DNA from: Thermoanaerobaculia bacterium
GTDB lineage: Bacteria > Acidobacteriota > Thermoanaerobaculia > Multivoradales > UBA5704
DNA: 64,000 nucleotides
Reading direction: 5' to 3'
Assembly: GCA_035995205.1 (NCBI GenBank)
Contig: DASYKS010000091.1
Span: forward strand, 2,085 to 66,084
Shown here: piece after piece, positions 37,746-64,000 of the stretch
How the letters are laid out: each line of letters opens with the position of its first letter
How positions within the stretch are numbered: the first letter of the stretch is position 1
Position numbers and translations under genes: made by a program
The notes under the pieces: model-generated
The model's database searches: none
What the model was told of the DNA's origin: nothing
Seen by the model: only the letters and a program-made list of their open reading frames with translations

Positions 37746-37756
37746 GGCGTCTCCCC

Positions 37757-39477: not shown

Positions 39478-39813
39478 TCAGTGAAGGCAGGCGTCAACCA
39501 AGTCGAGGACGTCCTGAAGAAACTCGGCCGGCGCCCGCTCGACGAAACGGGCGCGGCGGCTGAGGTGATCGACGGACTTGACCTGCTCGACCATGACAAA
39601 ACCGGTCAGCGATGAAGAGTCCGGGAGGGGGAGGTGAAAGGGAAATCCGCGGTTTGTGTTGGTGATCGGGCAGACGATCGCCAGCCCCGTGTGCTGGTTG
39701 AAGAGATCTTTGCTGACGACCAGAGCAGGTCGGCGCCCTTTCTGTTCATGACCCGTTTGGGGGTCGAAGGAGAGGGTTACGAAATCGCCTTGCCTCGGCG
39801 TGTAGCGGGGCAC
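39478..39813 (-). CDS. MazF/PemK family type II toxin (endoribonuclease)
   Basis: MPRYTPRQGDFVTLSFDPQTGHEQKGRRPALVVSKDLFNQHTGLAIVCPITN is the PemK/MazF fold signature. Confidence 0.8.
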   Translation of the reverse strand: MPRYTPRQGDFVTLSFDPQTGHEQKGRRPALVVSKDLFNQHTGLAIVCPITNTNRGFPFHLPLPDSSSLTGFVMVEQVKSVDHLSRRARFVERAPAEFLQDVLDLVDACLH

Positions 39814-40056
39814 TTACCACTCCTCCCGCCCTACCGGAGGGCCGAATGAGATCTCCTGTGGCTGATAGTCCTTCGGGATTCGCGCGACCAAATCGGCGAG
39901 GTCGAACTTGGGTCTCGCAATCTTTCGGACGACGATCTCCCCCGCGCTCACGGTGATCTCCACGTCGTCTCCTACCGCGAGCGTGGCCAGCTGGAGCACC
40001 TGCTTTGAGATCCGCAACCCCTGGCTGTTTCCCCACTTCTGGACCTTCGCGACCAT
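39814..40056 (-). CDS. MazE/PemI-like antitoxin (AbrB/SpoVT swapped-hairpin domain)
   Basis: MVAKVQKWGNSQGLRISKQVLQLATLAVGDDVEITVSAGEIVVRKI. Directly abuts the toxin start. Confidence 0.75.
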   Translation of the reverse strand: MVAKVQKWGNSQGLRISKQVLQLATLAVGDDVEITVSAGEIVVRKIARPKFDLADLVARIPKDYQPQEISFGPPVGREEW

Positions 40057-40117: not shown

Positions 40118-40135
40118 CGTTGTACTGCCGCTTCC

Positions 40136-40216
40136 AACTATTACAAGCTGCCCGGAGTCTCCCAGGACAGCGACGTCCTCAACGGCCTGGTCGATCGCGA
40201 AGGTTTCTTGCCGTAA
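40136..40216 (+). repeat. Direct repeat copy 2 (orphan duplicate of the secreted-protein gene 3' end), followed by a hairpin at 40227-40256
   Basis: 81 bp, ~90% identical to 39181-39261 and ending in TAA. Downstream hairpin GGCGAGTCG-N12-CGACTCGCC. The motif gacgactcgcc also follows copy 1. Confidence 0.8.
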
Positions 40217-40407: not shown

Positions 40408-43158
40408 ATGCCCCGGCATTTATCGCGGCGTTGGATTGCATACGTGGGTCTTCTCGCTCTTCTTGGGGCATCGACCGCCGTGGCGCAGCCGCATTTGGTG
40501 ACCGATCTCAATCAGGGGCGGGTGCCGGCCAATTTGCAACCCTTGCCGTCCGCGGGGATCGAGCAGGACGGAGTGCTCTATTTTCCTGGGCAAGATCCGC
40601 AGCACGGCTACGAGCTCTGGCGGACTGACGGCACGCCGGAAGGCACGTACCGCCTGGTCGATCTCTGCCCGGGAAGCTGTTGGGGCGGGGGCAACGGTCT
40701 AGGTTTCTTCCACGGTTTTCTCTACTTTCTGGGCAACGACCGGGAGCACGGTGTCGAGATCTGGCGCACGGACGGCACGGTAGGCGGGGAGGAATTGCTC
40801 GGGGATCTCTGCCCGGGCGTTTGCGGGACGACGCCGGGCGGGTGGGTCGAGCGGGACGGCGCTCTCTGGTTTCTCACCCAAGAGTTCGGCAAGACCCCGA
40901 TCCTTTGGACCAGCGACGGCACCCCGGCGGGGACGAGGCCGGTCGCGAACCTCTGCACCGATCTCGGCATCTGCGGCTTCGTCGATTATTCATACGCGTT
41001 CTTGGCCGGCCCGGACCCCTCCGGGCAGGGCTTCGCCCTCTGGACGTCGACCGACACCTCCGCCCTGTACCGCACCGACGGCACCGCGGCGGGTACCGTC
41101 CTCCTGCATCGCTTCACGAACGCGTTTCTCGCCTCCAAGGCGGGCGCGGACAAGCGGCTCGAAAGCTTGAAAACCTCCGTCGGACCGATCGCGCGGACGG
41201 CGGCCGAGGCCGCCGAGTCGCTCTTCTTTCTCGACGGGTTCGATCTCTGGACGAGCGACGGAACGCCCGCCGGCACCCACTTCGTGCGCAACGTCGAAGG
41301 GCTGATCGGCCTCAGCCGCTACATCCAATCGGTGCGTGTGATCGACGGGATCTGGTACGCGATCTTCGACTACGGCGATTGGCTGCGTTCGGACGGGACC
41401 GCGGAGGGGACGTTCCTCCTGGCGAAGGTGGATTCCCAATTTCGTCCGACGCTCGCGCGGATCGGCAACGCGGTATTCGCGATCACCGTGCACGGCATCT
41501 GGCGCGCGGGCGCCACCCCGGAGACCACCGTGCGCTTCGACGGGCCGGTCGGCGACGTCCTGACCGTCGTCGAGCGGCCGGGGCGGCTGTACGTCATGGG
41601 CTGGGACCGGGCCGGTTTCGTCTGGAGCACCGACGGCACCCCGGCCGGCACGCGGCGCCACCATCTGGACGGCCCGCCGAATCCGGATCAGTACGAGATG
41701 GGCGGATTCGGCGACGGCGTCTTGATCTCGGTCGGTTACCGCGAGCTTTGGCGGATCGATCTGTCCGGCGCGGAGCGGCTGCATGATTTCCAGCCGGCCA
41801 ACGGCGGTTCCGGCCCGGTCGACCAGATCGTCCTCGACGATCGCCTGCTGTTCATTTCGCTCCCCGACGCGCAAAGGGCGAAACTGTTCTCCTCCGACGG
41901 CACGACGGCCGGCACGGCGGCGATCAGTCCCTATGTGGACGGGAACTTCGGTTTCGAATTCCAGCCGGATGTCTATCGGCTCACGCGGGCCGGTCACCGC
42001 GCGTTCTTCACCACGTTCGGTCGGGTCTGGACGAGCGACGGCACGGCCGCGGGAACCCGGTCCTTCCGCCCCTCGTACAGCTCTTCGACCCACGTGATGA
42101 CCGCGCCGATCGGCGTCGTGGGCGACCGCTTCGTGTTCGGCGCGAACTTCAAGCTCTACCCGTTGCGCTGCGAACCGGGGGACACCGAGCCCTGGGTGAG
42201 CGACGGCACGCAACGCGGCACGAAACAGATCCTGGACTTGAATCCGTTCTTCCGACCGACCAACAGCTCCCAGTGCGAGACCGTGGCGGTCTCGTCGTCG
42301 CCGGGTCCCGGCGTCTCGCTCGGCTCGTTCGCCCTGTTTGCCGCCAACGATCTTGTGCACGGCCGCGAGCTGTTCGCGACCGACGGCACGAAAGAGGGCA
42401 CCCGCCTGGTCGCGGATCTGAACCCGAAGTTGATGCCGAATGCGATCACCGATCCGCCCTTGCCGGCGCTGATCGGCGTCGGCTCCGATCCGAGCGACCT
42501 GGTCCGGGCTGGGAGCCGCGCCTTCTTCGTCGCCGACGACGGGACGACCGGCCACGAGCTCTGGGTGACGAACGGCACGCGCCGCGGCACCCGGCGGGTG
42601 GTAGACCTGGTGCCTGGACCGGCAAGCTCCACGCCGCGCGACCTCGTGGCGGTCGGCGACGCGGTCTACTTCTTCGCCGCGCACGGCACGGGCGAAGGGC
42701 TTTTTCGCAGCGACGGCACGCGCGCCGGTACGGTCCTCGTGAGCGACCTGGCCGGCGCTTCTCAGGCTCGCGACCTTACCGTCGCCCGCGGCAACCTGTT
42801 CTTCGTCGCGTTCCTCCCGGAATCGGGCACGGAGCTGTGGACCTCCCGGGGCACGGCTGCCACCACCCGCGAGGTGGCCGACCTGCGCCCAGGGCCGCTC
42901 GGCTCGCAGCCGCAAAATCTGAAGGCGATCGGCGATCGGGTGGTGTTTGCGGCCGAGGACGGCACCTCCGGCCTCGAACCGTGGAGCAGCGACGGCACCG
43001 CGCAAGGCACGCTCCGCTGGGGGGATCTCGCCCCGGGCTCTGCCGCGAGCAGCCCGGGACCGTTCAGCGTCGCCCGGGGGCAGATCCTGTTCGGCGCCGA
43101 CGACGGCGAGCACGGCCGCGAGCTGTGGGCGATCCCGGTCGCCGACCTGCCGAAATGA
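40408..43158 (+). CDS. Secreted ELWxxDGT-repeat protein, paralog 1 (type B N-terminus)
   Basis: 916 aa. Signal peptide ...STAVAQPHLVTDLNQ. Three Cys pairs (DLCPGSCWGGG, DLCPGVCG, NLCTDLGICGF). About 19 units with ELWxTDGTxxGT core. C-terminus GADDGEHGRELWAIPVADLPK. GGAGG RBS. Confidence 0.85.
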   Translation: MPRHLSRRWIAYVGLLALLGASTAVAQPHLVTDLNQGRVPANLQPLPSAGIEQDGVLYFPGQDPQHGYELWRTDGTPEGTYRLVDLCPGSCWGGGNGLGFFHGFLYFLGNDREHGVEIWRTDGTVGGEELLGDLCPGVCGTTPGGWVERDGALWFLTQEFGKTPILWTSDGTPAGTRPVANLCTDLGICGFVDYSYAFLAGPDPSGQGFALWTSTDTSALYRTDGTAAGTVLLHRFTNAFLASKAGADKRLESLKTSVGPIARTAAEAAESLFFLDGFDLWTSDGTPAGTHFVRNVEGLIGLSRYIQSVRVIDGIWYAIFDYGDWLRSDGTAEGTFLLAKVDSQFRPTLARIGNAVFAITVHGIWRAGATPETTVRFDGPVGDVLTVVERPGRLYVMGWDRAGFVWSTDGTPAGTRRHHLDGPPNPDQYEMGGFGDGVLISVGYRELWRIDLSGAERLHDFQPANGGSGPVDQIVLDDRLLFISLPDAQRAKLFSSDGTTAGTAAISPYVDGNFGFEFQPDVYRLTRAGHRAFFTTFGRVWTSDGTAAGTRSFRPSYSSSTHVMTAPIGVVGDRFVFGANFKLYPLRCEPGDTEPWVSDGTQRGTKQILDLNPFFRPTNSSQCETVAVSSSPGPGVSLGSFALFAANDLVHGRELFATDGTKEGTRLVADLNPKLMPNAITDPPLPALIGVGSDPSDLVRAGSRAFFVADDGTTGHELWVTNGTRRGTRRVVDLVPGPASSTPRDLVAVGDAVYFFAAHGTGEGLFRSDGTRAGTVLVSDLAGASQARDLTVARGNLFFVAFLPESGTELWTSRGTAATTREVADLRPGPLGSQPQNLKAIGDRVVFAAEDGTSGLEPWSSDGTAQGTLRWGDLAPGSAASSPGPFSVARGQILFGADDGEHGRELWAIPVADLPK

Positions 43159-43183
43159 GATCGAGAACCCAACGGAGGGCGTG

Positions 43184-44608
43184 ATGCGAATTCAATCCTG
43201 GCGCGCGGCTTGGAGCTTCGTCTTTCTCGCTTTCGCGGGAACTTTGGCCGTCGAGGCCCAGCCGCACCTGGTCGCCGATCTCAATCAGGAAAGGGTGAAT
43301 ACCGCCTTGTCCTCCGCTTTGTCTGGAGGAGTCGAGCACGACGGCGTGGTCTATTTTGCGGGTCACGATCCGCAGCACGGCTCCGAGCTCTGGCGGACGG
43401 ACGGTACCTCGGAGGGCACCTATCGCCTGACCGATCTCTGTCCGGGGAGCAGCGGGGGCTTGGGCGAGCCCCTGGGGTTTTTTGCCGGGTACCTCTATTT
43501 CCGCGGCGACGACTGCGAGCACGGATTCGAGATCTGGCGCACGGACGGGACGGTGGGCGGAGAGGAAATGCTCGCGGAGCTCTGCACGGGAGACTGCGTG
43601 ATCGAACCCAGGAGCTGGCTCGAATGGCGAGGGGCGCTCTGGTTCCTGCTTCGGGATGCCGCCGGAACGGCGCAGGTTCTGTGGACCAGTGACGGAACCG
43701 CGGAGAACACGAGGCCTGCCGCCGACCTCTGCGCCGATCTCGGAATCTGCGACTTTGTCCCGGACTCCATTTTCCTGGTCGGGCCGAACGCGACGGGGGA
43801 GGGTCTGTTCCTCTGGGTCTATTCGACGGACAACCCCATGGGCGCGCTTTTCCGTACCGACGGCACCGCTTCCTCATCTCCCGGCCCCGGTGTCGTGGTC
43901 GGCCGGATCGCCCTGTTCCCCGCCAACGATCTGATTCATGGCCGCGAGCTGTTCGCGACCGACGGCACGAAAGAAGGCACCCGCCTCGTCGCCGACCTCA
44001 ACCGGAACCTCGAACCCAATCCGAAGTTTTATCCTCACCATCCGGAGTTCGGACCGGAGCAGGCCGGCGTCGGTTCGGATCCGAGCGATCTGGTGCGCGC
44101 GGGAAGCAATGTCTTCTTCGTTGCCGACGACGGCAGGACCGGGCGCGAGCTGTGGGTGACGAACGGCACGCGCCGGGGCACGGGTCTCGTGAGCGACCTC
44201 TCGGGCGGCTCCCAAGCGCGGGAGCTGACCCTCGTCCGCGGCAAACTGTTCTTCGCGGCGTTCCTCCGGGAGACGGGCGCCGAGCTGTGGACCTCGAAAG
44301 GCACGGCGGAGACCACCCATAGGGTGGCCGACCTGCACCCCGGACCGTTCGGCTCGCAGCCGCAGAACCTCAAGGCGGTGGGCGATCGGGTGGTGTTCGC
44401 GGCCGAGGACGGCATCTCCGGGCTCGAACCCTGGACCAGCGACGGCACCGCGGAGGGCACGCTCCGCTGGGGCGACATCGCGCCGGGCAGCGCGTCGAGC
44501 AACCCGGGGCCGTTCAGCCTGGCGAACGGCCAGATCCTGTTCGGCGCGGACGACGGCGAGCACGGGCGCGAGCTGTGGGCGATGCCGGTCGCCGAGCTGC
44601 CGCAATAG
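43184..44608 (+). CDS. Secreted ELWxxDGT-repeat protein, paralog 2 (type A, shortened by two in-frame internal deletions)
   Basis: 474 aa. Same N- and C-termini as paralog 4, but it jumps from ...ALFRTDGTA directly to SSSPGPGVVVGRIALF, and from TRRGT to GLVSDLSGGSQ. Confidence 0.75.
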   Translation: MRIQSWRAAWSFVFLAFAGTLAVEAQPHLVADLNQERVNTALSSALSGGVEHDGVVYFAGHDPQHGSELWRTDGTSEGTYRLTDLCPGSSGGLGEPLGFFAGYLYFRGDDCEHGFEIWRTDGTVGGEEMLAELCTGDCVIEPRSWLEWRGALWFLLRDAAGTAQVLWTSDGTAENTRPAADLCADLGICDFVPDSIFLVGPNATGEGLFLWVYSTDNPMGALFRTDGTASSSPGPGVVVGRIALFPANDLIHGRELFATDGTKEGTRLVADLNRNLEPNPKFYPHHPEFGPEQAGVGSDPSDLVRAGSNVFFVADDGRTGRELWVTNGTRRGTGLVSDLSGGSQARELTLVRGKLFFAAFLRETGAELWTSKGTAETTHRVADLHPGPFGSQPQNLKAVGDRVVFAAEDGISGLEPWTSDGTAEGTLRWGDIAPGSASSNPGPFSLANGQILFGADDGEHGRELWAMPVAELPQ

Positions 44609-44639
44609 AAGCCCTACCGAGAAGACGAACGGAGACGCG

Positions 44640-47387
44640 ATGAGAATCCTGCAATCCTGGCGCGCGGTGTGGTCCGTCGTCCTTCTCGCCTTCGCGGGCG
44701 CCTTGTCCGGGCTGGCCCAGCCCCGCCTCGTCCTCGATCTCAACCGAGAGAGGGGGCGATCCGTTTCGCAGCCTCGGCTGGGCTTCGAGCAGGACGGCGT
44801 CGTCTATTTTTCGGGCAACGACCCGCAGCACGGCTACGAGCTGTGGCGGACCGACGGCACGGTGGGCGGCACCTATCGTCTGACCGATCTCTGCCCGGGA
44901 CGCTGCGACGGCGGAGGACAGGCCCTCGGCTTTTTCCAGGGGTCGCTCTATTTCCTGGGCAACGATTCCGAGCACGGCACCGAGATCTGGCGTACGGACG
45001 GAACCGTCGGCGGGGAGGAGCTGCTCGCCGACGTCTGTCCGGGAATCTGTGATCTCCAGGTGAACGGCTGGGTCGAATGGCACGGGCGGTTTTGGTTCCT
45101 CGCCCAAAGAGTCTTCGGCACAGTCCTCGTCCTCTGGTCGAGCGACGGGACGCAAGAAGGAACCCGACCGGTGGCGAGTCTCTGTCGCGACCTTTCGATC
45201 TGCGAGGGCCAGGACCGCTACACGTATTTGACCGGCTCCGACCCGTCCGGACAGGGCCTCGTCCTGCGGGTGTGCGACGGCTGCGACGCGAGCTCGCTTT
45301 ATCGCACCGACGGCACCGTGGGCGGCACCGTGCTCCTGCATCGCTATGCGGCAAGAGGGTCCGACTTTGGGGAGAAGGCCACCGTTCCGCTCTATTTTCT
45401 CGACGGCTCGGACCTCTGGACCAGCGACGGAACGCCCTCCGGCACTCGCTTCGTCCGCAACCTGGACGCCCTGGTGGATTACGTCCCGTTGCGCTCTTCC
45501 GCCCAGGTGATCGACGGCACCCTGTACCTCGCGTTCGACGGCGGCGAATGGCTGCGCTCCGACGGCACGGCGGAAGGCACCGTCGTGCTGGCCGATGTCG
45601 GCCCCGGCACCGACCCGAAAATCGAGCCGATCGGCGACGCCGTCTTCGCCGTCACGTCGGAAGGAGTCTGGCGCACGGGAGGCACCCCGGAGACCACCGC
45701 CCGGCTCGATTTTCCGTTCGGCTTGATCCAGACCGTGGTCGCGCGGCCGGGCCGCCTGTTCGGCTTGAGCTACGAGGGGCAAGGGGCCTTCGTCTGGACC
45801 ACCGACGGCACGGCGGCCGGCACGCGACGGGTCCATCTTCCCCGCGGACCCAAACCGGATTTGTACGGTTTGGTGGGGTTTCTCGACGGGGTGTTGTTCT
45901 CCCGCGGCGCGCGCGAGCTGTGGCAACTGGAACCGATCGCCTCCGGCCAGGGCGGCACGGGATTCGTCGCCGAGCGGCTGCACGAGTTCCAGCCCGAAAA
46001 CGGCGGCTCCGGCCCGAGCGATCAGATCGTCTTCTCCGGCCGGCTGCTGTTCGCGTCGCTGGCCAACCCGGAAAGCCGGTGGCTGTACTCCTCCGACGGT
46101 ACCGCCGCCGGCACGACCGCGCTCCGCGCGATCGAGAACAGCCCGTATCTCGCCCCCGGCGGCGCCTACGAACCGGGGACCCCCTTGATCGCCCGCGCCG
46201 GCGCGCGGGTGTTTTTCAACACCGCGGGAGCGCTCTGGTCGAGCGACGGAACCCGCAAAGGCACCAAGGCCTGGCGCGGTTCTTCCTTCCCGAGCTTCCG
46301 GATGAACGCGCCGATCGGTTTCCTCGGCGGCCAGCTCGTTTTCTCCGCGACGGTCGACTTGGACCTCTACCCGCAGCGCTGCCCCCCCGGAGAGGCCGAG
46401 CCGTGGGTGAGCGACGGCGTTCGAAGGATGGAACGGCTGGTGAATCTCAATCCCTTCTACTACGAACCCGACGGGTTCTGCCTGAACACGGCGTATTCTT
46501 CGTCGCCCGGGCGAGGAGCCCGGATCGGCCCGATCGCGCTCTTCGCCGCGGACGATCTGGTGCACGGGCGCGAGCTGTTCGCGACCGACGGCACGAAGGA
46601 CGGAACCCGGCTGGTCGCCGACATCGACCCGCGGGTGACGCCGGTCGACGGTTCGGAGCTCTTGCCGCGCCCCCTCCACTTCTTCGGGATCGGCTCGGAC
46701 CCGAGCGACCCGGTGCGGGCGGGGAGCCTCGCCTTCTTCGCCGCGGACGACGGGACGACCGGCCGCGAGCTTTGGGTGAGCGACGGTACGAGCCGCGGCA
46801 CCCGTCAGGTGGCGGACCTGATGCCCGGCGCCGGCAGCTCTTCCCCGCGCGACCTCGTGGCGACCGGCGACGCGGTCTACTTCTTCGCCGCCAACCCCCC
46901 CGGGAGCGCCGGCACCGCGGGCGAGGGGCTCTACCGGAGCGACGGCACCCGGAGAGGCACGGTCCGGGTCGGCGACCTCGCGGGCGTTTCCGAAGCGCGG
47001 GGGCTCCAGGTCGCCGACGGCAAGCTTTTCTTCGTCGCCTACCGCCGGGAGACGGGCACCGAGCTGTGGGTCTCGGAAGGCACGGCGGAGACCACCCACG
47101 AGGTGACCGACCTGCGCCCCGGCCCGCGCGGCTCGGCCCCTCAGAACCTGAAAACGGTGGGCGGAACGGTGATTTTCGCCGCGGACGACGGCGTCTCCGG
47201 GCTCGAACCGTGGAGTAGCGACGGCACCGCGGCGGGCACGCTCCGATGGGGCGATATCGCGCCAGGGCGCGACGCGAGCGTCCCCGGTCCGTTCAGCGTC
47301 CTCGGCGGCCAGCTTCTCTTCGGTGCCGACGACGGCGAGCATGGGCGCGAGCTGTGGGCAATTTCGCTTGCTGAGCTGTCGCAATAG
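44640..47387 (+). CDS. Secreted ELWxxDGT-repeat protein, paralog 3 (type B)
   Basis: 915 aa. Signal peptide, Cys-pair region, repeat units. C-terminus GADDGEHGRELWAISLAELSQ. Confidence 0.85.
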   Translation: MRILQSWRAVWSVVLLAFAGALSGLAQPRLVLDLNRERGRSVSQPRLGFEQDGVVYFSGNDPQHGYELWRTDGTVGGTYRLTDLCPGRCDGGGQALGFFQGSLYFLGNDSEHGTEIWRTDGTVGGEELLADVCPGICDLQVNGWVEWHGRFWFLAQRVFGTVLVLWSSDGTQEGTRPVASLCRDLSICEGQDRYTYLTGSDPSGQGLVLRVCDGCDASSLYRTDGTVGGTVLLHRYAARGSDFGEKATVPLYFLDGSDLWTSDGTPSGTRFVRNLDALVDYVPLRSSAQVIDGTLYLAFDGGEWLRSDGTAEGTVVLADVGPGTDPKIEPIGDAVFAVTSEGVWRTGGTPETTARLDFPFGLIQTVVARPGRLFGLSYEGQGAFVWTTDGTAAGTRRVHLPRGPKPDLYGLVGFLDGVLFSRGARELWQLEPIASGQGGTGFVAERLHEFQPENGGSGPSDQIVFSGRLLFASLANPESRWLYSSDGTAAGTTALRAIENSPYLAPGGAYEPGTPLIARAGARVFFNTAGALWSSDGTRKGTKAWRGSSFPSFRMNAPIGFLGGQLVFSATVDLDLYPQRCPPGEAEPWVSDGVRRMERLVNLNPFYYEPDGFCLNTAYSSSPGRGARIGPIALFAADDLVHGRELFATDGTKDGTRLVADIDPRVTPVDGSELLPRPLHFFGIGSDPSDPVRAGSLAFFAADDGTTGRELWVSDGTSRGTRQVADLMPGAGSSSPRDLVATGDAVYFFAANPPGSAGTAGEGLYRSDGTRRGTVRVGDLAGVSEARGLQVADGKLFFVAYRRETGTELWVSEGTAETTHEVTDLRPGPRGSAPQNLKTVGGTVIFAADDGVSGLEPWSSDGTAAGTLRWGDIAPGRDASVPGPFSVLGGQLLFGADDGEHGRELWAISLAELSQ

Positions 47388-47412
47388 AGCCAGGAACGAG
47401 GAGGAGGACGTG

Positions 47413-50130: not shown

Positions 50131-50157
50131 AACCCGGTACATAGGTAGGAGGACGCG

Positions 50158-52884: not shown

Positions 52885-52908
52885 GAACGAAGGGGAACGG
52901 AGGAACCG

Positions 52909-55626: not shown

Positions 55627-55652
55627 GGACGGCGAAAGAAACGGAGGACGTC

Positions 55653-58337
55653 ATGCGAATTCAATCCCGGCGGGCGGTGTGGGTCGGCGTACTCCTCGTC
55701 TTCGCGGGAGCCTTGGCCGGAAAGGCCCAGCCGCATCTGGTCGCCGATCTCAACCAGGAAAGCGTAGATTCCCCTACGCCCCCTTCTTGGTTCGGGAGTG
55801 TCGAGCACGACGGCGTGCTCTATTTTTCGGCCAGCGATCCATCGCATGGTTACGAGGTCTGGCGTACGGACGGCACGTTCCGCCTCATGGATCTCTGCCC
55901 CGGGCGCTGTTCGGGAGGCGTCCGGACCCTCGGGTTTTTCCGCGGCTTTCTCTATTTCCTGGGCGACGACCGGGAACACGGCCTCGAAATCTGGCGTACA
56001 GACGGAACCGTGGGCGGAGAGGAGTTGCTCGCCGACGTCTGTCCGGGGACCTGCGGGACCGTGCCGAGCGGTTGGGTCGAATGGCGCGACGGCCTTTGGT
56101 TCCTCGCCCAAGAGTCTTTCGATGCGGACGCCGTCCTGTGGACCAGCGACGGAACCGCGGCAGGAACCCGACCGGTCGCGAACCTCTGTACCGATCTTTC
56201 GATCTGCCGCTCGGACCCGGACGATTCCCAGGCAGTTCTGGCCGGGCCGGATCCGTCCGGTCAGGGTCTGCTCCTGTGGACCTTCAAGATCGACGAACCG
56301 AGATCTCTCTTCCGCACCGACGGCACCGTGGGGGGCACGGTGCTTCTGCATCATTTCGTGGCCGGATTTCAATTCGAAGGTCAGATCGGGCGAGCCCCCG
56401 CCGGACCGCTCTATTTCCTCGACGGGTTGAATCTCTGGACGAGCGACGGAACGCCCGCCGGCACTCTTCTCGTCCGCAACCTGGACGGGCTGATCGAAGT
56501 CGGTTTTCTGCTGTCCACCGAAGTCGTCGATGGGATCTTCCACGCCACCTTCAGCGACAACAACTGGTTGCGCTCCGACGGGACGGCCGAGGGCACTTTC
56601 GTGTTGGCCCAAGTGGCTCCGGGCACCGACCCCACGATCGCCCGGATCGGCGGCTCGGTCTTCGTGCTCACCACGGACGGAATCTGGCGGACGGCAGGGA
56701 CCCCCGAGACCACCTCTTCGTTCGCCGGTCCGCGCGGTGAGATTCTTTCGGTGGTCGAGCGACCGGGCCGGCTGTTCGTCATGAGTTACGACCCGGATCA
56801 AAACCGCCCGTTCCTATGGACCACCGACGGCACCCCGGCCGGGACCCGCCGGCTCCCTCTCGGTCCCGGGCCGAGGCTCGATGCGGACGGGATGGCAGCC
56901 TTTCGAGACGGCGTGTTGGTTTCCCGGGGTTCCCGCGAGCTGTTGCGGGTCGACGGCACGGGTGCGGAGAGGCTGCACGATCTCCAGCCCGGAAACGGCA
57001 GCGCCGGCCCGAACGAGCAGATCGTTTTGGGACACCGGCTGGTGTTCTTCTCCCTGGCCGGCGAGCACAACTCGCAGCTCTTCTCCTCGGATGGCACCGC
57101 CGCCGGCACGACCGCGATCGGCGCGGCTTTCGGAGGACAGACGCAGTTCAAGCTCACTCGCGCGGGCGGGCGAGGATTTTTCAATTCGCGTGGGCTGCTC
57201 TGGGCGACGGACGGCACCCGCGAGGGAACCCGGTCCTGGCGGCCTCAATCCTCCTTCTACGAGAGTTTCGGCATGAACGCCCCGATCGGTTTCGTCGGCG
57301 GACGGTTCGTCTTCTCCGCGACCCTGGACATCAACGAGGTGCCGCATTGCGCCGAAGGAGACAGCGAGCCCTGGGTGAGCGATGGAATCCATGGCCCGAA
57401 TCAGCTGCTCAATCTGAACCCCTTCTTCTTTGAGCCCCACGGGCTCTGCTCGGCCAACGACGTCTCTTCATCCCCCGGCCCCGGGGTCGTGGTCGGTCCC
57501 CTCGCCCTATTCGCCGCGGACGATCTCGTGCATGGGCGCGAGCTGTTCGCGACCGACGGCACAAAAGAGGGGACGCGGTTGGTCGCCGACATCAACCCGA
57601 AGCGGCAACCGTTCGACCATCCCGACCTTCTGCCGCATCCGCTTCATTTCGTCGGCGAGGACTCCGACCCGACCGACCTGGTGCGCGCGGGAAGCCGCGC
57701 CTTCTTCGTCGCCGACGACGGGACGACCGGGCGCGAGCTGTGGGTGACGAACGGCACCCGCCGCGGCACGCGGAGGGTCGCGGATTTCGTGCCCGGACCG
57801 GGCAGCTCCTCGCCGCACAACCTGGTGGCGGTCGGGAAGGGGATCTACTTTTTCGCCGCTCACGGCGAGGGCGAGGGACTGTTCAAGAGCGACGGCACGC
57901 GGAGCGGCACGGTGTTGGTGAGCGATCTTGCCGGCGTCTCCCAAGCGCGAGACCTCACCGTCGTCCGCGACAAGTTGTTCTTCGTCGCGTTCCGCCCGGA
58001 GACGGGCACTGAGCTGTGGACCTCCCAAGGCACGGCCGCGACCACCCGCCAGGTCGCGGATCTGCGCCCCGGCCCGCGCGGCTCGGCGCCCCAGAGCCTC
58101 AAAGGCTTGGACGACGGGGTGATCTTCGCGGCCGATGACGGGATCGCGGGCCTCGAACCCTGGACGAGCGACGGCACTCCCGAGGGAACGATCCGCCGGG
58201 GCGACCTCGCGCCGGGACGAGACGCGAGCAGCCCGGGGCCGTTCAGCATCGCCAACGGCCAGATCCTGTTCGGCGCGGACGATGGCGAGCACGGCCGCGA
58301 GCTCTGGGCGATTCCGGTGGCGGAGCTGGTGAATTGA
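55653..58337 (+). CDS. Secreted ELWxxDGT-repeat protein, paralog 7 (type B)
   Basis: 894 aa from MRIQSRRAVWVGVLLVFAGALAGKAQPHLVADLNQESV. The track ORF has an upstream read-through. First 30 nt are near-identical to the 5' ends of paralogs 2 and 4. Confidence 0.85.
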   Translation: MRIQSRRAVWVGVLLVFAGALAGKAQPHLVADLNQESVDSPTPPSWFGSVEHDGVLYFSASDPSHGYEVWRTDGTFRLMDLCPGRCSGGVRTLGFFRGFLYFLGDDREHGLEIWRTDGTVGGEELLADVCPGTCGTVPSGWVEWRDGLWFLAQESFDADAVLWTSDGTAAGTRPVANLCTDLSICRSDPDDSQAVLAGPDPSGQGLLLWTFKIDEPRSLFRTDGTVGGTVLLHHFVAGFQFEGQIGRAPAGPLYFLDGLNLWTSDGTPAGTLLVRNLDGLIEVGFLLSTEVVDGIFHATFSDNNWLRSDGTAEGTFVLAQVAPGTDPTIARIGGSVFVLTTDGIWRTAGTPETTSSFAGPRGEILSVVERPGRLFVMSYDPDQNRPFLWTTDGTPAGTRRLPLGPGPRLDADGMAAFRDGVLVSRGSRELLRVDGTGAERLHDLQPGNGSAGPNEQIVLGHRLVFFSLAGEHNSQLFSSDGTAAGTTAIGAAFGGQTQFKLTRAGGRGFFNSRGLLWATDGTREGTRSWRPQSSFYESFGMNAPIGFVGGRFVFSATLDINEVPHCAEGDSEPWVSDGIHGPNQLLNLNPFFFEPHGLCSANDVSSSPGPGVVVGPLALFAADDLVHGRELFATDGTKEGTRLVADINPKRQPFDHPDLLPHPLHFVGEDSDPTDLVRAGSRAFFVADDGTTGRELWVTNGTRRGTRRVADFVPGPGSSSPHNLVAVGKGIYFFAAHGEGEGLFKSDGTRSGTVLVSDLAGVSQARDLTVVRDKLFFVAFRPETGTELWTSQGTAATTRQVADLRPGPRGSAPQSLKGLDDGVIFAADDGIAGLEPWTSDGTPEGTIRRGDLAPGRDASSPGPFSIANGQILFGADDGEHGRELWAIPVAELVN

Positions 58338-58362
58338 GGACCGAAGGGCGAACGGGGGAGCG

Positions 58363-61137
58363 ATGAAAATCCGGAAATCCTGGCGCGCGGTGTCGTGGGT
58401 CGCCCTTCTCCTCTTCGCGGGGGCCTTGGCCGGGCAGGCCCAGCCCCACCTCGTCGCCGATCTCAATCGGCAGCGGGTGGACGGCCGCTCGCAGCCTTTC
58501 CCGTCCGAGGGTGTCGAGCACGAGGGAGTGCTCTATTTTCCGGCCCACGATCCGCAACACGGCTATGAGCTCTGGCGGAGCGACGGCACGCCGGAGGGCA
58601 CTTACCGCCTGGTCGATCTCTGCCCCGGAAGCTGCTCGGGCGGGGGCCGGTCTTTGGGGTCTTTCCACGGCCACCTCTATTTCGTGGGCGACGATTCCGA
58701 GCACGGCGCCGAGATTTGGCGCACGGACGGAACCGTCGGCGGCGAGGAGCTGCTCGCGGACGTCTGTCCGGGAAGCTGCTGGAGCTTGGCGAACGGTTGG
58801 GTCGAATGGCGCGGGGCGCTCTGGTTCCTCGTCCAAGCGACGTACGATGCGAGCACCGTCCTGTGGACCAGCGACGGGACCCGGGAGGGAACCCGGCCGG
58901 TCGCGAGCCTCTGCACCGACCTGGCGATCTGCGACTCCGTTTCGTATCAGTTCGGCATCTTTCTGGGCGGTCCGGATCCGTCCGGGCAGGGGCTGCTCGT
59001 TTGGACTTCCGAATCCCACCTGGAATCTCTCGTTCGCACCGACGGCACCGCGGGCGGCACGGTGCTCCTGCATCGCTTCGTGGAAGACACTCAATACGTC
59101 GACCAGATCCAGCGCAAGGTGACGGGCGAGCCGCTCTTTTTCATCGACAATGCGGAGCTGTGGACGAGCGACGGGACGCCCGCCGGCACGCGCCTCGTCC
59201 GTAGCCTGGTTGGACTGGTAGATGACTACGACATGCAATCGTTCGAGGTCGTCGACGGGATCTTCTACGCCACTTTCTTCGCCTTCAACCAGTGGCTGCG
59301 GTCCGACGGCACGGCGGCAGGCACTTTCCTGTTGGGGCAGGCGGGCTCGGCCTCGGATCTCACGGTCGCACACATCGGCAGTGGGGTCTTCGTCGTGTCC
59401 TCGGACGGCATCTTTCGCACGGGAGGCACCCCCGAAACGATCTCCTCGTGGGCAGGACCCGCCGGGCCGATTCACGACGTCGTCGAGCGGCCGGACCGGC
59501 TGTTCGTCCTCGCCTACAATCAGGAACAATCCCGAGATTTCCTTTGGACCACCGACGGCACTCCGGCCGGGACGCGAAAGATCCACTTCGACGGCGGGCC
59601 GAGCCCCGACGAGTACGGAATGAAGGCCTTCGGGGGCGGGGTGTTGCTCTCTCGGGGTCGCCACGAGCTCTGGCGGGTCGACGGCGCGGGCGCCGAGGTC
59701 GAACGGCTCCACAATTTCCAGCCCGCCAACGGCGGCTCCGGCCCGCTCGACCAAGTCGTCTCGGGCGGACGGTTGGTGTTCTTTGCGCGGGCCGACGAGT
59801 GGAGATCCAGGCTCTTCTCTTCGGATGGAACCTCGGCCGGTACGTCGGCCATCACCACCGCGGCGGACGTGGGAACCTTCGACCTCGGCCTCGATTTCGA
59901 TTACCGGGCACTCTTCAAGCTCACCCGCGCGGGGGGGAAGGTGCTGTTCAATTCGTGGTCCCGGCTTTGGGAGACCGACGGGTCCCGCGAGGGTACGCGA
60001 ACGTACCGGCCTCGGTCCTCCTATCAGAGCTTCACGTTGAACGCCCCGATCGGCTTCGTCGGCGGCCGGTTCGTCTACTCCGCGACCCTCCTCGGCATCG
60101 ACGACGATCCTGAGCGTTGCGACGGGGACAGCGAGCCCTGGGTGAGCGAGGGGCATGGCACGAGCCAGCTGCTCGATCTCAACCCCTACTTCTATGAGGT
60201 CCCGAACGGTTTCTGCACGGCGAGATACGTTCCCTCGTCGCCCGGTCGCGGAGTCGTGGTCGGATCCATCGCCCTATTTGCCGCCGACGACCTCGTCCAT
60301 GGACGTGAGCTGTTCGCGACCGACGGCACGAAAGAGGGCACCCGGCTCGTGGCCGACGTCAACAGGAAGCGGCGGCCGTTCGACGATCCGTATCTCAAGC
60401 CCCAGCCGCCTCGTTTCGTCGGCGACAGCTCCGACCCCACCGATCTGGTGCGCGCGGGAAGCCGCGTCTTCTTCGTCGCGAACGATGGCATCAGCGGCCG
60501 CGAGCTCTGGGTCACGAACGGCACTTTCCAAGGGACGCGGAGGATTGCGGATCTGGTGCCCGGCCCGGCCGGCTCGACACCGCGCAACCTCGTGGCGGTC
60601 GGCGACGCGATCTACTTTTTCGCCGCGAACGCCGCGAACGCCGCGAACGGCGCGGGAGAGGGCCTTTACCGGAGCGACGGCATGCCGGGCGGCACGGTCC
60701 GGGTGAGCGATCTGACGGGCGTTTCCCAAGCGCGGGACCTCCTCGCCGCCAAGAACGGCCGGTTGTTCTTCGTGGCGTTCACGGAGGAGGCGGGTACCGA
60801 GCTGTGGACCTCCCAAGGCACGGCCGCGACCACCCGCCGTGTCGCGGACCTGCGCCCCGGCCCGCGCGGCTCGGCGCCCCAGAACTTGAAGATCGTAGGC
60901 GACCGAGCCATCTTCGCGGCCGATGACGGGATCGCGGGCCTCGAACCCTGGACGAGCGACGGCACCTCCGAGGGAACGGTCCGGCTTGGCGACCTCTCCC
61001 CGGGGCGCGACGCGAGCACCCCCGGGCCGTTCAGCGTCGCGAATCATCAGGTTCTCTTCGGCGCCGACGACGGCGAGCACGGGCGCGAGCTGTGGGCGAT
61101 GCCGGTGGCGGACGTGGCCGGTTCGGCGCAGCCGTAG
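58363..61137 (+). CDS. Secreted ELWxxDGT-repeat protein, paralog 8 (type B)
   Basis: 924 aa. Contains a short AANAANAANGAGEG insertion near the C-terminal third. Confidence 0.85.
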   Translation: MKIRKSWRAVSWVALLLFAGALAGQAQPHLVADLNRQRVDGRSQPFPSEGVEHEGVLYFPAHDPQHGYELWRSDGTPEGTYRLVDLCPGSCSGGGRSLGSFHGHLYFVGDDSEHGAEIWRTDGTVGGEELLADVCPGSCWSLANGWVEWRGALWFLVQATYDASTVLWTSDGTREGTRPVASLCTDLAICDSVSYQFGIFLGGPDPSGQGLLVWTSESHLESLVRTDGTAGGTVLLHRFVEDTQYVDQIQRKVTGEPLFFIDNAELWTSDGTPAGTRLVRSLVGLVDDYDMQSFEVVDGIFYATFFAFNQWLRSDGTAAGTFLLGQAGSASDLTVAHIGSGVFVVSSDGIFRTGGTPETISSWAGPAGPIHDVVERPDRLFVLAYNQEQSRDFLWTTDGTPAGTRKIHFDGGPSPDEYGMKAFGGGVLLSRGRHELWRVDGAGAEVERLHNFQPANGGSGPLDQVVSGGRLVFFARADEWRSRLFSSDGTSAGTSAITTAADVGTFDLGLDFDYRALFKLTRAGGKVLFNSWSRLWETDGSREGTRTYRPRSSYQSFTLNAPIGFVGGRFVYSATLLGIDDDPERCDGDSEPWVSEGHGTSQLLDLNPYFYEVPNGFCTARYVPSSPGRGVVVGSIALFAADDLVHGRELFATDGTKEGTRLVADVNRKRRPFDDPYLKPQPPRFVGDSSDPTDLVRAGSRVFFVANDGISGRELWVTNGTFQGTRRIADLVPGPAGSTPRNLVAVGDAIYFFAANAANAANGAGEGLYRSDGMPGGTVRVSDLTGVSQARDLLAAKNGRLFFVAFTEEAGTELWTSQGTAATTRRVADLRPGPRGSAPQNLKIVGDRAIFAADDGIAGLEPWTSDGTSEGTVRLGDLSPGRDASTPGPFSVANHQVLFGADDGEHGRELWAMPVADVAGSAQP

Positions 61138-61161
61138 GCGGAGCGATCGAAAGGATCGATC

Positions 61162-63425
61162 ATGAATAGGTTTCCCAGGCAACGAGGGTTCACGTGGCGC
61201 GCAATCTTCGGCGCCGGTCTCTTCGCCTTCGTGGGTCAAGCCGCGGTTGCGGCACCGCATCTGGTGACCGATCTCATTCGGTCGCGGGTGGGGGGCTCCT
61301 TCTACGCGGCACCGTCTCAAGGCATCGAGCAGGAGGGGGTGCTCTACTTTCCCGGGCAAGACCCCCAGCACGGCGCCGAGCTTTGGCGCTCGGACGGTAC
61401 GCCGGAGGGCACGTACCGCCTGACCGACATCTGCCCGGGGAGCTGTAGCGGCGGCGGGCGGCTGCTGGGTTTCTTCCAGGGCTCCATGCCGCCGAACTCG
61501 CCGAGCCGCTCTACTTCCTCGACGGGTTCGAGCTGTGGACGAGCGATGGAACGCCGGTCGGCACCCGCCTGGTGCGCAACCTGGAGGGGATGGTCGTCAG
61601 TCGATCTCTGAAGTCGGTTCGAGTCATCGACGGAATCTGGTACGCCACGTTCGATTACGGCGAATGGCTGCGCTCGGATGGAACCGCGGAGGGGACCCTG
61701 AAACTGGCGGATGTCGGCGATGGCTACCACCCTACGATCGCGCGAATCGGCGCTATGGTCTTCGTGGTGACCTCGGGCGGCGTCTGGCGCACCGGAGGAG
61801 CTCCGGAGACCACCGTGCGTTTCGATGCGCCGCTCGGCGCCGTCCTGACCGTCGTCGAACGGCCCCGGCGGTTGTTCGTCGCCGGTTACGTTTCGGCCGG
61901 CACGGTGTGGAGCACCGACGGTACCGCCGCCGGAACCCACCGCCATAATTTGCACGGTCGGCCGAAACCGGACCAATACGAAATGGGGGGACTGCGGAAC
62001 GGTGTGGTGATTACCCGCGGCGCCCACCGCGAGCTCTGGCGGGTCGACGAGGCGGGCGCGGAGCGCTTGTACGACTTCCAGCCGGCCAACGGCGGATCCG
62101 GCCCGTTCGACCAGATCGTCTTTGGCAAGAAACTCCTGTTCTCGTCAATGGCCGGCGCGCGAGGGTCGAAGTTGTTTACTTCCGACGGCACGGCGCCGGG
62201 CACGAGTGCGGTCAGCCCGTTCGTGGGCTATGGAGCCCGCTTGCTGACTCAAGGAGGCGGATTGGTCTTCTTCACCGCCGGAAACCGGGTTTGGAAGACC
62301 GACGGCACCCTCACGGGGACCCGCTACTTCCGGCCCGAATACGATTACTCCACGCACGAGATGACCGCTCCGATCGGCGTTCTCGGCGGCCGGTTCGTAT
62401 TCGGGGCGAATTTCAAGTTCTACCCCTTCAGCTGCGAACCGGGGGATACCGAGCCGTGGGTGAGCGACGGGACGGGCCGGGGAACAAAACAGATCCTCAA
62501 CCTCAATCCCTACGAGCAATACGGGGGCGGCAGCTCCCAGTGCTACACCGTAGACATCTCGTCGGATCCAAGCCCCGGCGTGGTGCTCGGCTCGGTCGCC
62601 CTGTTCGCGGCCGACGATCTCGTGCATGGGCGCGAGCTGTTCGCGACCGACGGCACCAAAGAGGGCACCCGCCTGGTGGCCGACTTGAACCCGAAGCTGA
62701 TGCCGAACACGATCTCCGAGCCGCCCGTTCCGGCGTTGATCGGCGTCAGCTCGAACCCGAGCGATCTGGTGCGCGTGGGGAGCCGGGCGTTCTTCTCCGC
62801 CGACGACGGCGAAACCGGGCGGGAGCTGTGGGCGACGGACGGCACGCCGCACGGCACCCGGCGGGTGGCGGACCTGATGCCCGGGCCGGAAGGATCCGCG
62901 CCGCATGGTCTATTGGCGGTGGGCGACTCGGTCTATTTTTTTGCCGCTTACGGCACAGGCGAGGGGCTCTTCAAGAGCGATGGCACTCGGGCCGGCACGG
63001 CCCTGGTGAGCGACCTGGCCGGCGCGTCGCAGACCCGAGAGCTGACCTCCGCCCAGGGCAGGCTGTTTTTCGTCGCGTACCGCCCGGCTTCGGGTACCGA
63101 GCTTTGGACCTCTGGCGGTAGCCCTGGGACCACCCACATGGTGGCCGACCTGCGCCCCGGACTGCGTGGCTCGCTGCCGCAATATCTCAAGGCGGTGGGC
63201 GAGCGGGTGATCTTCGCGGCCGATGACGGCACCACAGGGCTCGAACCGTGGAGCAGCGACGGCACCGCGGAGGGCACGCTCCGCTGGGGCGACCTCGTTC
63301 AGGGGAGAGACGCGAGCAGCCCGGGACCGTTCAGCATCGCGAACGGCCAGCTTCTCTTCGGCGCCGACGATGGCGAGCACGGCCGCGAGCTGTGGGCGAT
63401 GCCGGTGGCGGAGCTGCCGGAATAG
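61162..63425 (+). pseudogene. ELWxxDGT-repeat protein, paralog 9, disrupted by an out-of-frame internal deletion
   Basis: The N-terminal 110 aa (signal peptide, first Cys pairs) run to ...LLGFFQGS. The frame then shifts at ~61480. The homologous sequence resumes in the +1 frame at AAELAEPLYFLDGFELWTSDGTPVGT, which corresponds to residue ~270 of full-length paralogs, and runs to the normal C-terminus (ORF 61572-63425). Confidence 0.55.
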
Positions 63426-63462
63426 GAATCGCGGTACCGAAGTGAAGAGAACGGAGGATGTG

Positions 63463-64000
63463 ATGCGACTTCTGCCATTCCGGCGCGCGTTTTGGATCGT
63501 TTTCCTCGTCGCCTTCGCGGGAGCCTTGGCCGGGCAGGCACAGCCGCACCTCGTTGCCGATCTCAATCCGGGGCCGAGCGCCCTGCGTCTGCCCTCCTTT
63601 CCGTCCTTTGGAATCGAGCGCGAAGGCGTGCGCTTTTTCGCGGCGACAGACCCTCAGCACGGCTACGAGCTTTGGCGCACCGACGGCTCTCCGGCCGGAA
63701 CTTATCGTCTGGCCGACGTCTGCCCCGGGCGGTGCTCGGCCTGGGCGAACCCTCTTGGTTTCTTCGGCGGGTTTCTCTACTTCAGCGCCGACGACGGGGA
63801 GCACGGCGCGGAGCTTTGGCGCACCGACGGGACGGTGGGAGGGGAGGAGCTATTCGCGGACCTCTGCCCCGGGGTCTGCGGCAGCGACCTCTACCCCTGG
63901 ATCGAGTGGCAGGGGGCGCTCTGGTTCCTGACCCGTAGCCCGGGCGCCGCCGCACTCACCTTCTGGACCAGCGACGGCACCCGCCCCGGGACGCGGCCGC
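63463..64000 (+). CDS. Secreted ELWxxDGT-repeat protein, paralog 10 (N-terminal 179 codons, continues beyond the window)
   Basis: My translation from ATG 63463: MRLLPFRRAFWIVFLVAFAGALAGQAQPHLVADLNPG...DPQHGYELWRTDGSPAGTYRLADVCPGRCSAW...AELWRTDGTVGGEELFADLCPGVCG. GGAGG RBS. Confidence 0.75.
   Translation, partial: MRLLPFRRAFWIVFLVAFAGALAGQAQPHLVADLNPGPSALRLPSFPSFGIEREGVRFFAATDPQHGYELWRTDGSPAGTYRLADVCPGRCSAWANPLGFFGGFLYFSADDGEHGAELWRTDGTVGGEELFADLCPGVCGSDLYPWIEWQGALWFLTRSPGAAALTFWTSDGTRPGTRP

Follow-up and report, generated by a model that had tools for sequence, protein, structure and literature searches.

An array of ten ELWxxDGT-repeat genes in a soil-type Thermoanaerobaculia MAG and the predicted propeller fold of its products

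Organization of the locus

The window, a 64,000-nucleotide stretch from an uncultured, soil-type Thermoanaerobaculia (Acidobacteriota) MAG, carries ten co-directional ELWxxDGT genes in the region 40408-64000 (Table 1). That these form ten consecutive same-strand paralogs, as originally predicted, agrees both with the ORF map and with a six-frame HMM search, which found no additional copies in positions 1-40400; a 913-aa minus-strand ORF at 35064-37805, considered as an extra copy, was rejected as a MacB/FtsX permease. The length of about 900 aa ascribed to every product applies to eight of the ten, which are full-length (894-924 aa, counting G10 once it is completed beyond the window end), but not to G2, which has internal deletions, nor to G9, which is frameshifted. 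The paralog alignment reveals an insertion of about 22 aa specific to G1 (roughly residues 243-264), and an exact-product look-up for this gene returned no record, probably because its start has been called differently. G10 is the most divergent paralog and is basal in the tree; the array stops after it, and neither a downstream 450-aa ORF nor the small flanking ORFs have NCBIfam or Pfam matches.

Table 1. Positions and products of the array genes and of their upstream neighbour
Feature	Position	Strand	Description
Up328	38275-39261	+	Secreted 328-aa protein without known family, upstream of the array
G1	40408-43158	+	916 aa, first gene of the array, full-length; TIGR04534 446 bits
G2	43184-44608	+	474 aa, short variant, nine blades
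G3	44640-47387	+	915 aa, full-length paralog
G4	47413-50130	+	905 aa, full-length; modelled protein; NCBI locus VGS22_22500, 100% match to P0001
G5	50158-52884	+	908 aa, full-length paralog
G6	52909-55626	+	905 aa, full-length paralog
G7	55653-58337	+	894 aa, full-length; ATG at 55653; TIGR04534 435 bits
G8	58363-61137	+	924 aa, full-length paralog
G9	61162-63425	+	Disrupted paralog; G9a (61162-61611) and G9b, an ORF ending at 63425
G10	63463 to past window end (64000)	+	903 aa on the full contig; P0024, VGS22_22535

The intergenic spacers are 24-37 bp long, as had been noted, and contain GGAGG-like Shine-Dalgarno sites, with the exception that the site preceding G9 is a weaker AAAGGA. Scans of all array spacers found no promoter-like or terminator-like sites, in keeping with the operon-like organization proposed at the outset, and the ten genes are probably co-transcribed. 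Numerous terminator-like matches were discounted, since all are intra-coding and derive from YFF/LFF codons that follow GC-rich stems.

Up328 has no match in NCBIfam or Pfam. In a related MAG (L085) the product encoded immediately upstream of the single ELWxxDGT gene has 73% identity to it, and two paralogs of Up328 precede a solitary ELWxxDGT gene at another locus in the same MAG. The linkage is found at three loci of this lineage. Up328 is a conserved upstream neighbour of the G1-type gene and may be an ancestral operon partner. The idea of an obligate partner was dropped: homologues at L087-L089 have no ELWxxDGT neighbour, and Up328 is therefore not counted in any system.

Family assignment, export and predicted fold

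All ten products match NCBIfam TIGR04534 (126-451 bits against a curated cutoff of 65 bits; E values from 3e-37 to 1.5e-138), with 2-11 repeat stretches reported per product, confirming that the TIGRFAMs ELWxxDGT repeat, named in the original prediction, is the correct family. Annotation by NCBI and JGI already names these proteins 'ELWxxDGT repeat protein', correctly, and our analysis points to no new mechanism. The repeat is about 47 aa long, with the core E-L-W-x-x-D-G-T-x-x-G-T common to the array proteins, and both the consensus and DSSP assignment of a structural model give 18 units for each full-length protein, the last of them truncated, which settles the earlier estimate of 18-20 at its lower end. 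Pfam gave no meaningful match for any of the ten proteins at E<=0.01, nor for three of them at E<=10. The array proteins match neither DUF5980 (PF19410), which distant relatives match inside the repeat region, nor the PQQ-like/BamB-like PF13360, for which one relative, P0047, has only a sub-threshold match (24 bits, with the cutoff at 27.6). Searching PDB sequences with a profile yielded no matches at E<=1, and a literature search found no paper on the ELWxxDGT, TIGR04534 or DUF5980 family, in line with its initial description as a family without assigned function.

By inspection, the signal peptides have two to four K/R residues, a hydrophobic core and Ala at -1, and each full-length product would thus open with a Sec type-I signal peptide. 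There is no lipobox: the signal peptides end in A-x-A or G-x-A, the next residues are Q-P-H, and the cleavage site lacks a Cys. Tat export was rejected, since the twin arginine of the 'SRRAVW' motif seen in G4 and G7 is not conserved across the paralogs. No PEP-CTERM or sortase-type signal is present at the C-termini, which are hydrophilic repeat sequence without a transmembrane segment, and the T9SS tail (Por_Secre_tail, PF18962) is not matched, the proteins terminating in the repeat-derived ...GRELWAIPVAELPQ. The destination may be periplasmic or extracellular, as a Sec signal in a diderm fits either. Several elements of the original prediction stand at this point: the alignment bears out the signal peptides and the near-invariant C-terminal tail, and Pfam together with inspection of signal peptides and C-termini agrees with the reported lack of a catalytic domain, lipobox or PEP-CTERM signal. 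The number of conserved Cys pairs does not stand, in that the paralog alignment contains four rather than three (two C-P-G-x-C, one C-x-D-L-x-I-C and one near residues 588/623). These pairs may staple loops, as would suit proteins that fold in the periplasm or extracellularly.

The mature protein (about 880 aa, pI near 4.9) is made up entirely of 18 four-stranded blades, each about 45 aa long. An AF2 model of G4 (pLDDT 87.4, pTM 0.84) is all-beta with 18 such blades, the last of which is three-stranded, and its residues 28-31 form a separate strand near the N-terminus; a model of G2 (pLDDT 86.1, pTM 0.78) has nine blades. Foldseek with G4 returned solely multi-propeller proteins, among them LRP4, LRP2, LRP6, Sevenless, PorZ and GH74, and the suggestion that the repeats fold as beta-propellers is thus borne out by model and fold searches alike. 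The G4 ring superposes best on nine-bladed propellers, and the longest fold matches of the G2 model are nine- and ten-bladed rings. Most likely, the 18 repeats build a pair of large rings that act as binding domains, with a putative partition into rings and a putative contact between N- and C-termini. The mature N-terminus, 'QPHLVxDLN', may contribute the outer strand that the last blade lacks, and the near-invariant tail 'FGADDGEHGRELWAIP' may form the inner strands of that blade; the two, first described as separate motifs, are best read as halves of one closing blade and would jointly provide a 'velcro' closure. The predicted fold, in which rings of nine blades, a rare type, are closed by the N-terminal strand, offers a concrete structural hypothesis and would account for the two most conserved motifs.

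Orthologues, selection and loss of blades

Syntenic loci in related MAGs contain one, two or at least four ELWxxDGT copies, compared with ten here, so that array size varies among relatives. Orthologues are 75-88% identical in amino acids, as against 55-69% among paralogs, for which dS is about 0.74. G1 is 81% identical to L82_a and 75% identical to the single copy in L085, its orthologue, and orthologues were likewise found for G3 (L83_b, 85% identity), G5 (L83_a, 88%) and G6 (L83_d, 75%). Paralogs with one-to-one orthologues must be old and retained, which argues against both recent amplification and mis-assembly. It is extremely improbable that the array is an artefact in which fewer genes have been expanded or collapsed, even though this is a repetitive region in a short-read metagenome assembly: the paralogs are only 65-76% identical in nucleotides, the longest exact repeat within the array is 59 nt, and tandem orthologues of individual paralogs occur in independent MAGs. 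The array probably arose at this site by expansion of a single ancestral gene that followed Up328. The paralogs have been kept as distinct orthologous lineages, and their central blades diverge fastest.

The distribution of divergence differs from that first described. Rather than a conserved C-terminal third and diversified N-terminal two-thirds, we find that blades 1-2 and 15-18, at the two ends, are highly conserved and that the centre is variable. In 50-column windows paralog dN/dS is 0.24-0.62, with an average of 0.4, while orthologue dN/dS is 0.22-0.51 and highest in the centre, the central blades of one orthologue pair reaching at most 0.80-0.94. No window has dN/dS >1, and the idea of positive selection was dropped; the massive tandem amplification under diversifying selection that had been envisaged finds no support in these windowed ratios, and the paralogs are old, each with an orthologue. 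Paralog dS is lower in the C-terminal third, and N- and C-terminal windows of G6 resemble G4 or G1 of the same genome more closely than they do L83_d. Such mosaic identity patterns suggest that gene conversion partly homogenizes the gene ends.

Both G2 and G9 have undergone deletions in repeat register. Comparison of G2 with its full-length orthologue P0003 identifies two in-frame deletions that remove blades 5-12 and blade 15, leaving HMM segments 1-231, 616-719 and 764-908; Cys90 is lost and Cys111 gained, and dN/dS against P0003 is 0.33. The deletion in G9, of about three blades, is not a multiple of 3 nt and shifts the frame, with a breakpoint near 61481-61488. G9a (149 aa) comprises blades 1-2 behind a signal peptide of its own, and G9b matches G1 residues 265-916 in tblastn and blastn searches; the JGI gene calls likewise split the gene, into 149 and 611 aa, and G9 is likely to be a pseudogene. 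Recombination between repeats may thus occasionally drop blades, yielding a single nine-bladed ring in G2 and an inactivated gene in G9.

The frameshift in G9 and the truncation of G2, with its loss of a conserved Cys, could also be taken to mean that the locus holds one functional G1-type gene together with neutral duplicates that are becoming pseudogenes, as could the fairly high paralog dN/dS and the retention of the G1-type copy only in a related MAG. We consider such decay very improbable, given that eight of the ten ORFs are intact at about 2.7 kb each in a genome of about 68% GC, that each paralog tested has a 75-88% identical orthologue with dN/dS of 0.22-0.51, that dN/dS is 0.33 even for G2, and that ribosome-binding sites have been kept.

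Possible functions of the array proteins

Among 61 homologues every invariant column corresponds to a repeat-motif position, and neither these columns nor Pfam searches point to a catalytic constellation outside the repeat motif. Fusion partners in relatives include SLH, dockerin, RTX, HYR, Calx-beta, cadherin-like and PPC domains and, in some Bacteroidota, the T9SS C-terminal domain. Because a catalytic constellation is lacking and surface-anchor and adhesin fusions occur in other phyla, the module most likely serves as a binding scaffold without enzymatic activity, either extracellularly or in the periplasm. The array subfamily differs from other TIGR04534 proteins in being repeat-only, with no SLH, T9SS, RTX, HYR or cadherin appendage, and in having fixed N- and C-terminal closure motifs, four Cys pairs and a ten-gene array. 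We lean towards regarding its members as non-catalytic modules for binding that are exported through Sec, stapled by disulfides and diversified in their central blades, and the array as a repertoire of related binders that would differ in ligand specificity.

The YWTD propellers (LRP4, LRP2, LRP6, Sevenless and ROS1) are the top Foldseek matches, with E values from 1e-19 to 1e-12, and resemble what is predicted here in being extracellular, disulfide-containing, non-catalytic ligand binders with blades of about 45 aa and multiple propellers per chain. The array proteins nevertheless do not belong to the YWTD (LDL-receptor class B) family, since they have neither a match to its profile nor EGF spacers, their global TM-scores are only 0.16-0.18, and their ring fits nine-bladed propellers best whereas YWTD rings are six-bladed. 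The nine-bladed eIF3b and eIF2A resemble them in ring size and fold only, being cytosolic eukaryotic WD40-type translation factors with about 6% identity. PorZ and GH74-type proteins, which are bacterial, exported and have two propellers per chain, are among the Foldseek matches with the best TM-scores (0.28-0.29), but neither the T9SS C-terminal domain of PorZ nor the Asp-containing catalytic cleft of GH74 is found in the array proteins.

Some propellers without a recognizable motif are enzymes, and Acidobacteriota are known as polymer degraders. The products could accordingly be secreted enzymes, such as polysaccharide-active or lyase-type propellers with an active site in the central channel or between the two rings, and the array a set of isozymes for different substrates. 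The fold searches match GH74 xyloglucanases, tricorn protease, virginiamycin B lyase and PQQ dehydrogenases, and a fusion to a GDSL lipase occurs in one distant relative; we count the presence of the enzymes GH74 and virginiamycin B lyase among the fold matches against the binding interpretation. Overall, an enzymatic role seems quite unlikely.

A structural role in the envelope or matrix, as a surface layer or scaffold whose copies serve dosage or antigenic variety, would suit proteins that are predicted to be exported, acidic, repeat-only and disulfide-stabilized, that have relatives with SLH and other wall-anchoring domains, and that belong to a highly abundant family. It is unlikely, however, as the array proteins have no anchoring or self-assembly domain and a relative with the same synteny has just one copy; in addition, the maintenance of distinct orthologous lineages, not homogenized, speaks against pure dosage.

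The preferred interpretation, of related binders, can be carried further, to a form that we regard as doubtful when taken as a whole. Here the N- and C-terminal blades would constitute a conserved base ring, closed by the N-terminal strand, into which the central blades are inserted as a variable nine-bladed ring, and the array would hold at least eight old specificities. The ends would be reshuffled via gene conversion and the blade number edited via repeat recombination, with G2, cut to exactly nine blades by its two deletions, as a working product of such editing. The ELWxxDGT family comprises about 37,900 clusters at 50% identity, with members of up to 7,600 aa in many phyla and cultured carriers such as Tundrisphaera and a myxobacterium, and if true, the double nine-bladed propeller would represent a new and very widespread prokaryotic recognition scaffold. 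The locus itself provides a compact natural series of repeat-only paralogs, with one, two, at least four or ten copies at one syntenic site, and G2 provides a natural single-ring variant with which the family can be studied.

Gene content and export of the array

Stop-to-stop and start-codon analysis places ten consecutive + strand genes in the array (G1-G10, numbered 5' to 3'; see table), and all ten products match NCBIfam TIGR04534, 'ELWxxDGT repeat protein' (ELW), with scores of 126-451 bits where the cutoff is 65 bits, bearing out both the tandem arrangement and the family named in the original prediction. No Pfam match was obtained for the array proteins, and when all six-frame ORFs were searched with an HMM of the seven paralogs that are full length within the window, no further ELW copy emerged at window positions 1-40400. 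The predicted length of about 900 aa holds for eight of the ten, the exceptions being G2 (internal deletions) and G9 (frameshift). The parent contig (297 kb, from a Thermoanaerobaculia MAG; NCBI locus tags VGS22_22500 to VGS22_22535, also JGI 3300035667) carries G10 complete; the array stops there and is followed by a 450-aa ORF without a family, enoyl-CoA hydratase (ECH), aldehyde dehydrogenase and several toxin-antitoxin pairs. The spacers are indeed short (24-37 bp) with GGAGG-like ribosome-binding sites, that ahead of G9 being weaker, and, as proposed, the genes show no promoter-like or terminator-like site between them: terminator-like matches in the array all fall within coding sequence and promoter-like matches are absent. 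An assembly artefact, through collapse or expansion of fewer genes, is very unlikely, because no exact repeat within the array exceeds 59 nt and DNA identity between paralogs is 65-76%.

Features of the array and its surroundings (window positions unless marked L001, the parent-contig locus)
Feature	Position	Strand	Product or remark
MacB/FtsX-type ABC permease gene	35064-37805	-	913-aa ORF
Up328	38275-39261	+	328 aa, secreted
MazEF segment	39180-40215		
Direct repeat, first copy	39180-39260		81 nt
MazF-like gene	39478-39813	-	
MazE/AbrB-like gene	39814-40056	-	
Direct repeat, second copy	40135-40215		81 nt
G1	40408-43158	+	916 aa
G2	43184-44608	+	474 aa, internal deletions
G3	44640-47387	+	915 aa
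G4	47413-50130	+	905 aa
G5	50158-52884	+	908 aa
G6	52909-55626	+	905 aa
G7	55653-58337	+	894 aa
G8	58363-61137	+	924 aa
G9	61162-63425	+	frameshifted, spread over two frames
G10	63463 to window end	+	cut by window; 903 aa on full contig
450-aa ORF	L001 12854-14206		between G10 and ECH gene, just past window end
Toxin-antitoxin genes	L001 16733-21825		downstream of array

The product of every intact gene begins with a peptide bearing two to four basic residues and a hydrophobic core and ending in Ala (position -1), sequence features that agree with the signal peptide expected on each protein. The N-termini contain no lipobox, and a twin-arginine (Tat) signal was rejected because the twin arginine is not conserved across paralogs. 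The mature proteins have a pI of 4.6-5.0. There are four conserved Cys pairs, not the three originally counted, and they fit an oxidising compartment; the location may be periplasmic or extracellular.

Predicted structure and function

The AlphaFold2 model of G4, computed from a 61-sequence alignment, is all-beta and confident (pLDDT 87.4, pTM 0.84). It has 18 four-stranded blades (the final one with three strands only), where some 18-20 repeat units had been estimated; residues 28-31 (H-L-V-A) form a lone strand at the N-terminus. Foldseek searches of the PDB returned multi-propeller proteins only, with good local E-values and low global TM-scores (YWTD propellers of LRP4, LRP2, LRP6, Sevenless and ROS1, then PorZ, tricorn and GH74), so the suggestion of a repeat-built beta-propeller is upheld. 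G2 is modelled with confidence as one domain of nine blades plus the N-terminal strand (pLDDT 86.1, pTM 0.78), and its longest structural matches are again 9- and 10-bladed rings.

The mature N-terminus, 'QPHLVADLN', is close to the fourth strand of a canonical blade (e.g. 'GTRLVADINP'), and the invariant tail 'LFGADDGEHGRELWAIP' corresponds to the first half of such a blade (e.g. 'FFVADDGRTGRELWVT'). From this likeness we infer that the two are halves of a closing blade (velcro closure); a role as sorting signals was set aside on the same resemblance. The 18 blades are probably arranged 2 x 9, with the N-terminal strand closing. If blade 18 leads directly to blade 1 via a 13-residue linker, the terminal blades probably share one ring and the central blades form an inserted ring, which would fit the conserved regions at both ends and the set of blades kept in G2; a plain arrangement of blades 1-9 and 10-18 may apply instead.

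A His directly precedes G-x-E-L-W in blades 1, 2, 13 and 18 only (QHG, EHG, VHG and EHG; G1 residues 66, 114, 651 and 902, window approx. 40603, 40747, 42358 and 43111). It is invariant in the seven in-window full-length paralogs, at least 90% conserved in blades 1 and 18 across the 61-sequence alignment, and all four blades are kept in G2. These residues could be a candidate metal or ligand site.

The family is large (37,923 clusters at 50% identity, E<=1e-3), occurring in Acidobacteriota, Planctomycetota, Chloroflexota, Myxococcota, Bacteroidota, Verrucomicrobiota, Cyanobacteria and others. Fusion partners in relatives (SLH, T9SS C-terminal, dockerin, RTX, HYR, Calx-beta, cadherin-like and PPC domains, and once a GDSL lipase) are mostly anchors and adhesin-type domains; the invariant columns among 61 homologues are without exception repeat-motif positions, the array proteins match no enzyme family by sequence, and the neighbouring genes give no pathway clue. 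We therefore favour, with moderate confidence, a non-catalytic exported binding scaffold whose paralogs would differ chiefly in their central blades, over the rival readings of the products as enzymes or as a structural matrix, or of the array as decaying duplicates or an assembly artefact. The proteins belong to TIGR04534, the name already used in public annotation, and do not classify as YWTD or PQQ/BamB propellers, T9SS cargo, lipoproteins or PEP-CTERM proteins, the last two in keeping with the lipobox and PEP-CTERM signals originally reported missing. The array is a well-resolved example of a known, uncharacterised family and no new kind of system; what is added is a structural interpretation (18 blades, probably 2 x 9, closed by the N-terminal strand), a natural series of copy numbers at one syntenic site, the blade-editing deletions and the mosaic ends.

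Copy number, editing and divergence

In related MAGs the site has DHODH and Up328 (a secreted-protein gene) on its upstream side and ECH and aldehyde dehydrogenase on its downstream side, and copy number varies, as the proposed survey anticipated, from one (L085/L086) through two (L082) to at least four running into a contig end (L083). Trees and identities pair G1 with L82_a (81%) and the single L085 copy (75%), G3 with L83_b (85%), G5 with L83_a (88%), G6 with L83_d (75%), and both G2 and G4 with L83_c (86% and 76%); gene order is not collinear. One-to-one orthologues indicate that the duplications are older than the split of these organisms, and copy number shifts by both gain and loss, with single paralog lineages maintained. 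Tandem sets of 2-5 ELW genes occur in 18 of 81 related loci from other genomes (82 when L001 is counted). Independent sets of 3-5 genes lie in distant phyla, in L060 (Brocadiaceae MAG), L034 (Holophagales), and L041 and L011 (Acidobacteriota), so that arraying is a recurrent habit of the family, not peculiar to this MAG.

Two genes of the array have lost blades. G2 is 86% identical to its full-length orthologue P0003 but has two in-frame deletions with junctions in repeat register ('...FRTDGT / ASSSPGPG...' and '...NGTRRGT / LVSDL...', the stroke marking the junction), by which blades 5-12 and 15 are missing and 1-4, 13, 14, 16, 17 and 18 kept; its dN/dS of 0.33 against the orthologue argues against a long period of free drift. 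In G9, a deletion whose length is not a multiple of three (breakpoint near 61481-61488) has removed about three blades, leaving a 149-aa N-terminal ORF and the remainder in a different frame; the JGI annotation likewise splits it into two genes. The first C-P-G-x-C pair of G2 is without its second Cys (residue 90; CPGSS) and a new Cys stands at residue 111 (DDCEHG), potentially leaving unpaired cysteines in a gene still under purifying selection.

Paralogs share 55-69% protein identity (mean pairwise dS 0.74, dN 0.31, dN/dS 0.42). In 50-column windows their dN/dS rises from 0.24-0.30 at the ends (blades 1-2 and the C-terminal blades) to 0.5-0.6 in the centre, and exceeds 1 in no window, so the diversifying selection proposed earlier is not borne out; of the proposed contrast between a conserved C-terminal third and diverse N-terminal two-thirds the former stands, but blades 1-2 are conserved too and variability is central. 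Orthologue pairs give 0.22-0.51, and G6 against L83_d reaches 0.80-0.94 in the central part. In end windows (for example the final ~200 codons of the G1 alignment, and in G6 both columns 76-250 and the C-terminus) an in-genome paralog is nearer in DNA than the orthologue, and between-paralog dS is lower across the C-terminal third, a pattern expected of gene conversion at the conserved ends.

Neighbouring genes

Between Up328 and G1 sits a MazEF-type toxin-antitoxin pair, bracketed by a direct repeat (91% identical) that copies the Up328 3' end; the segment has the look of an insertion whose target was duplicated, and coincides with a fall in GC to 0.60 at 38-40 kb. In L082 and L084, other toxin-antitoxin pairs are found at the corresponding place. 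Downstream of the array are two HepT/nucleotidyltransferase pairs and one Unstab_antitox (PF09720) antitoxin/ParE-toxin pair, and in L082 the flank includes PIN/PhdYeFM and PemK/MazE as well as an IS21-like helper gene; this toxin-antitoxin density and flank content place the locus in a plastic part of the chromosome. The permease gene, between DHODH and Up328, is missing from the otherwise collinear single-copy locus L085, so either this lineage gained it by insertion or the other lost it. The 450-aa ORF matches no Pfam or NCBIfam family and is missing from syntenic L082, L083 and L085; ahead of it is a 141-bp gap, richer in AT, that contains one promoter-like site and one weak terminator-like site.

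Up328 belongs to a small family restricted to Thermoanaerobaculia (49 matches), found upstream of ELW genes at three loci (here; L084 6525-7604 and 7695-8690; L085 8716-9714). Its C-terminal ~115 aa recurs, at 58-77% identity, in proteins that have trypsin-like peptidase or laminin-G-like (PF13385) domains as well, pointing to a putative shared C-terminal module, and in L089 an Up328 homologue adjoins a sortase gene.
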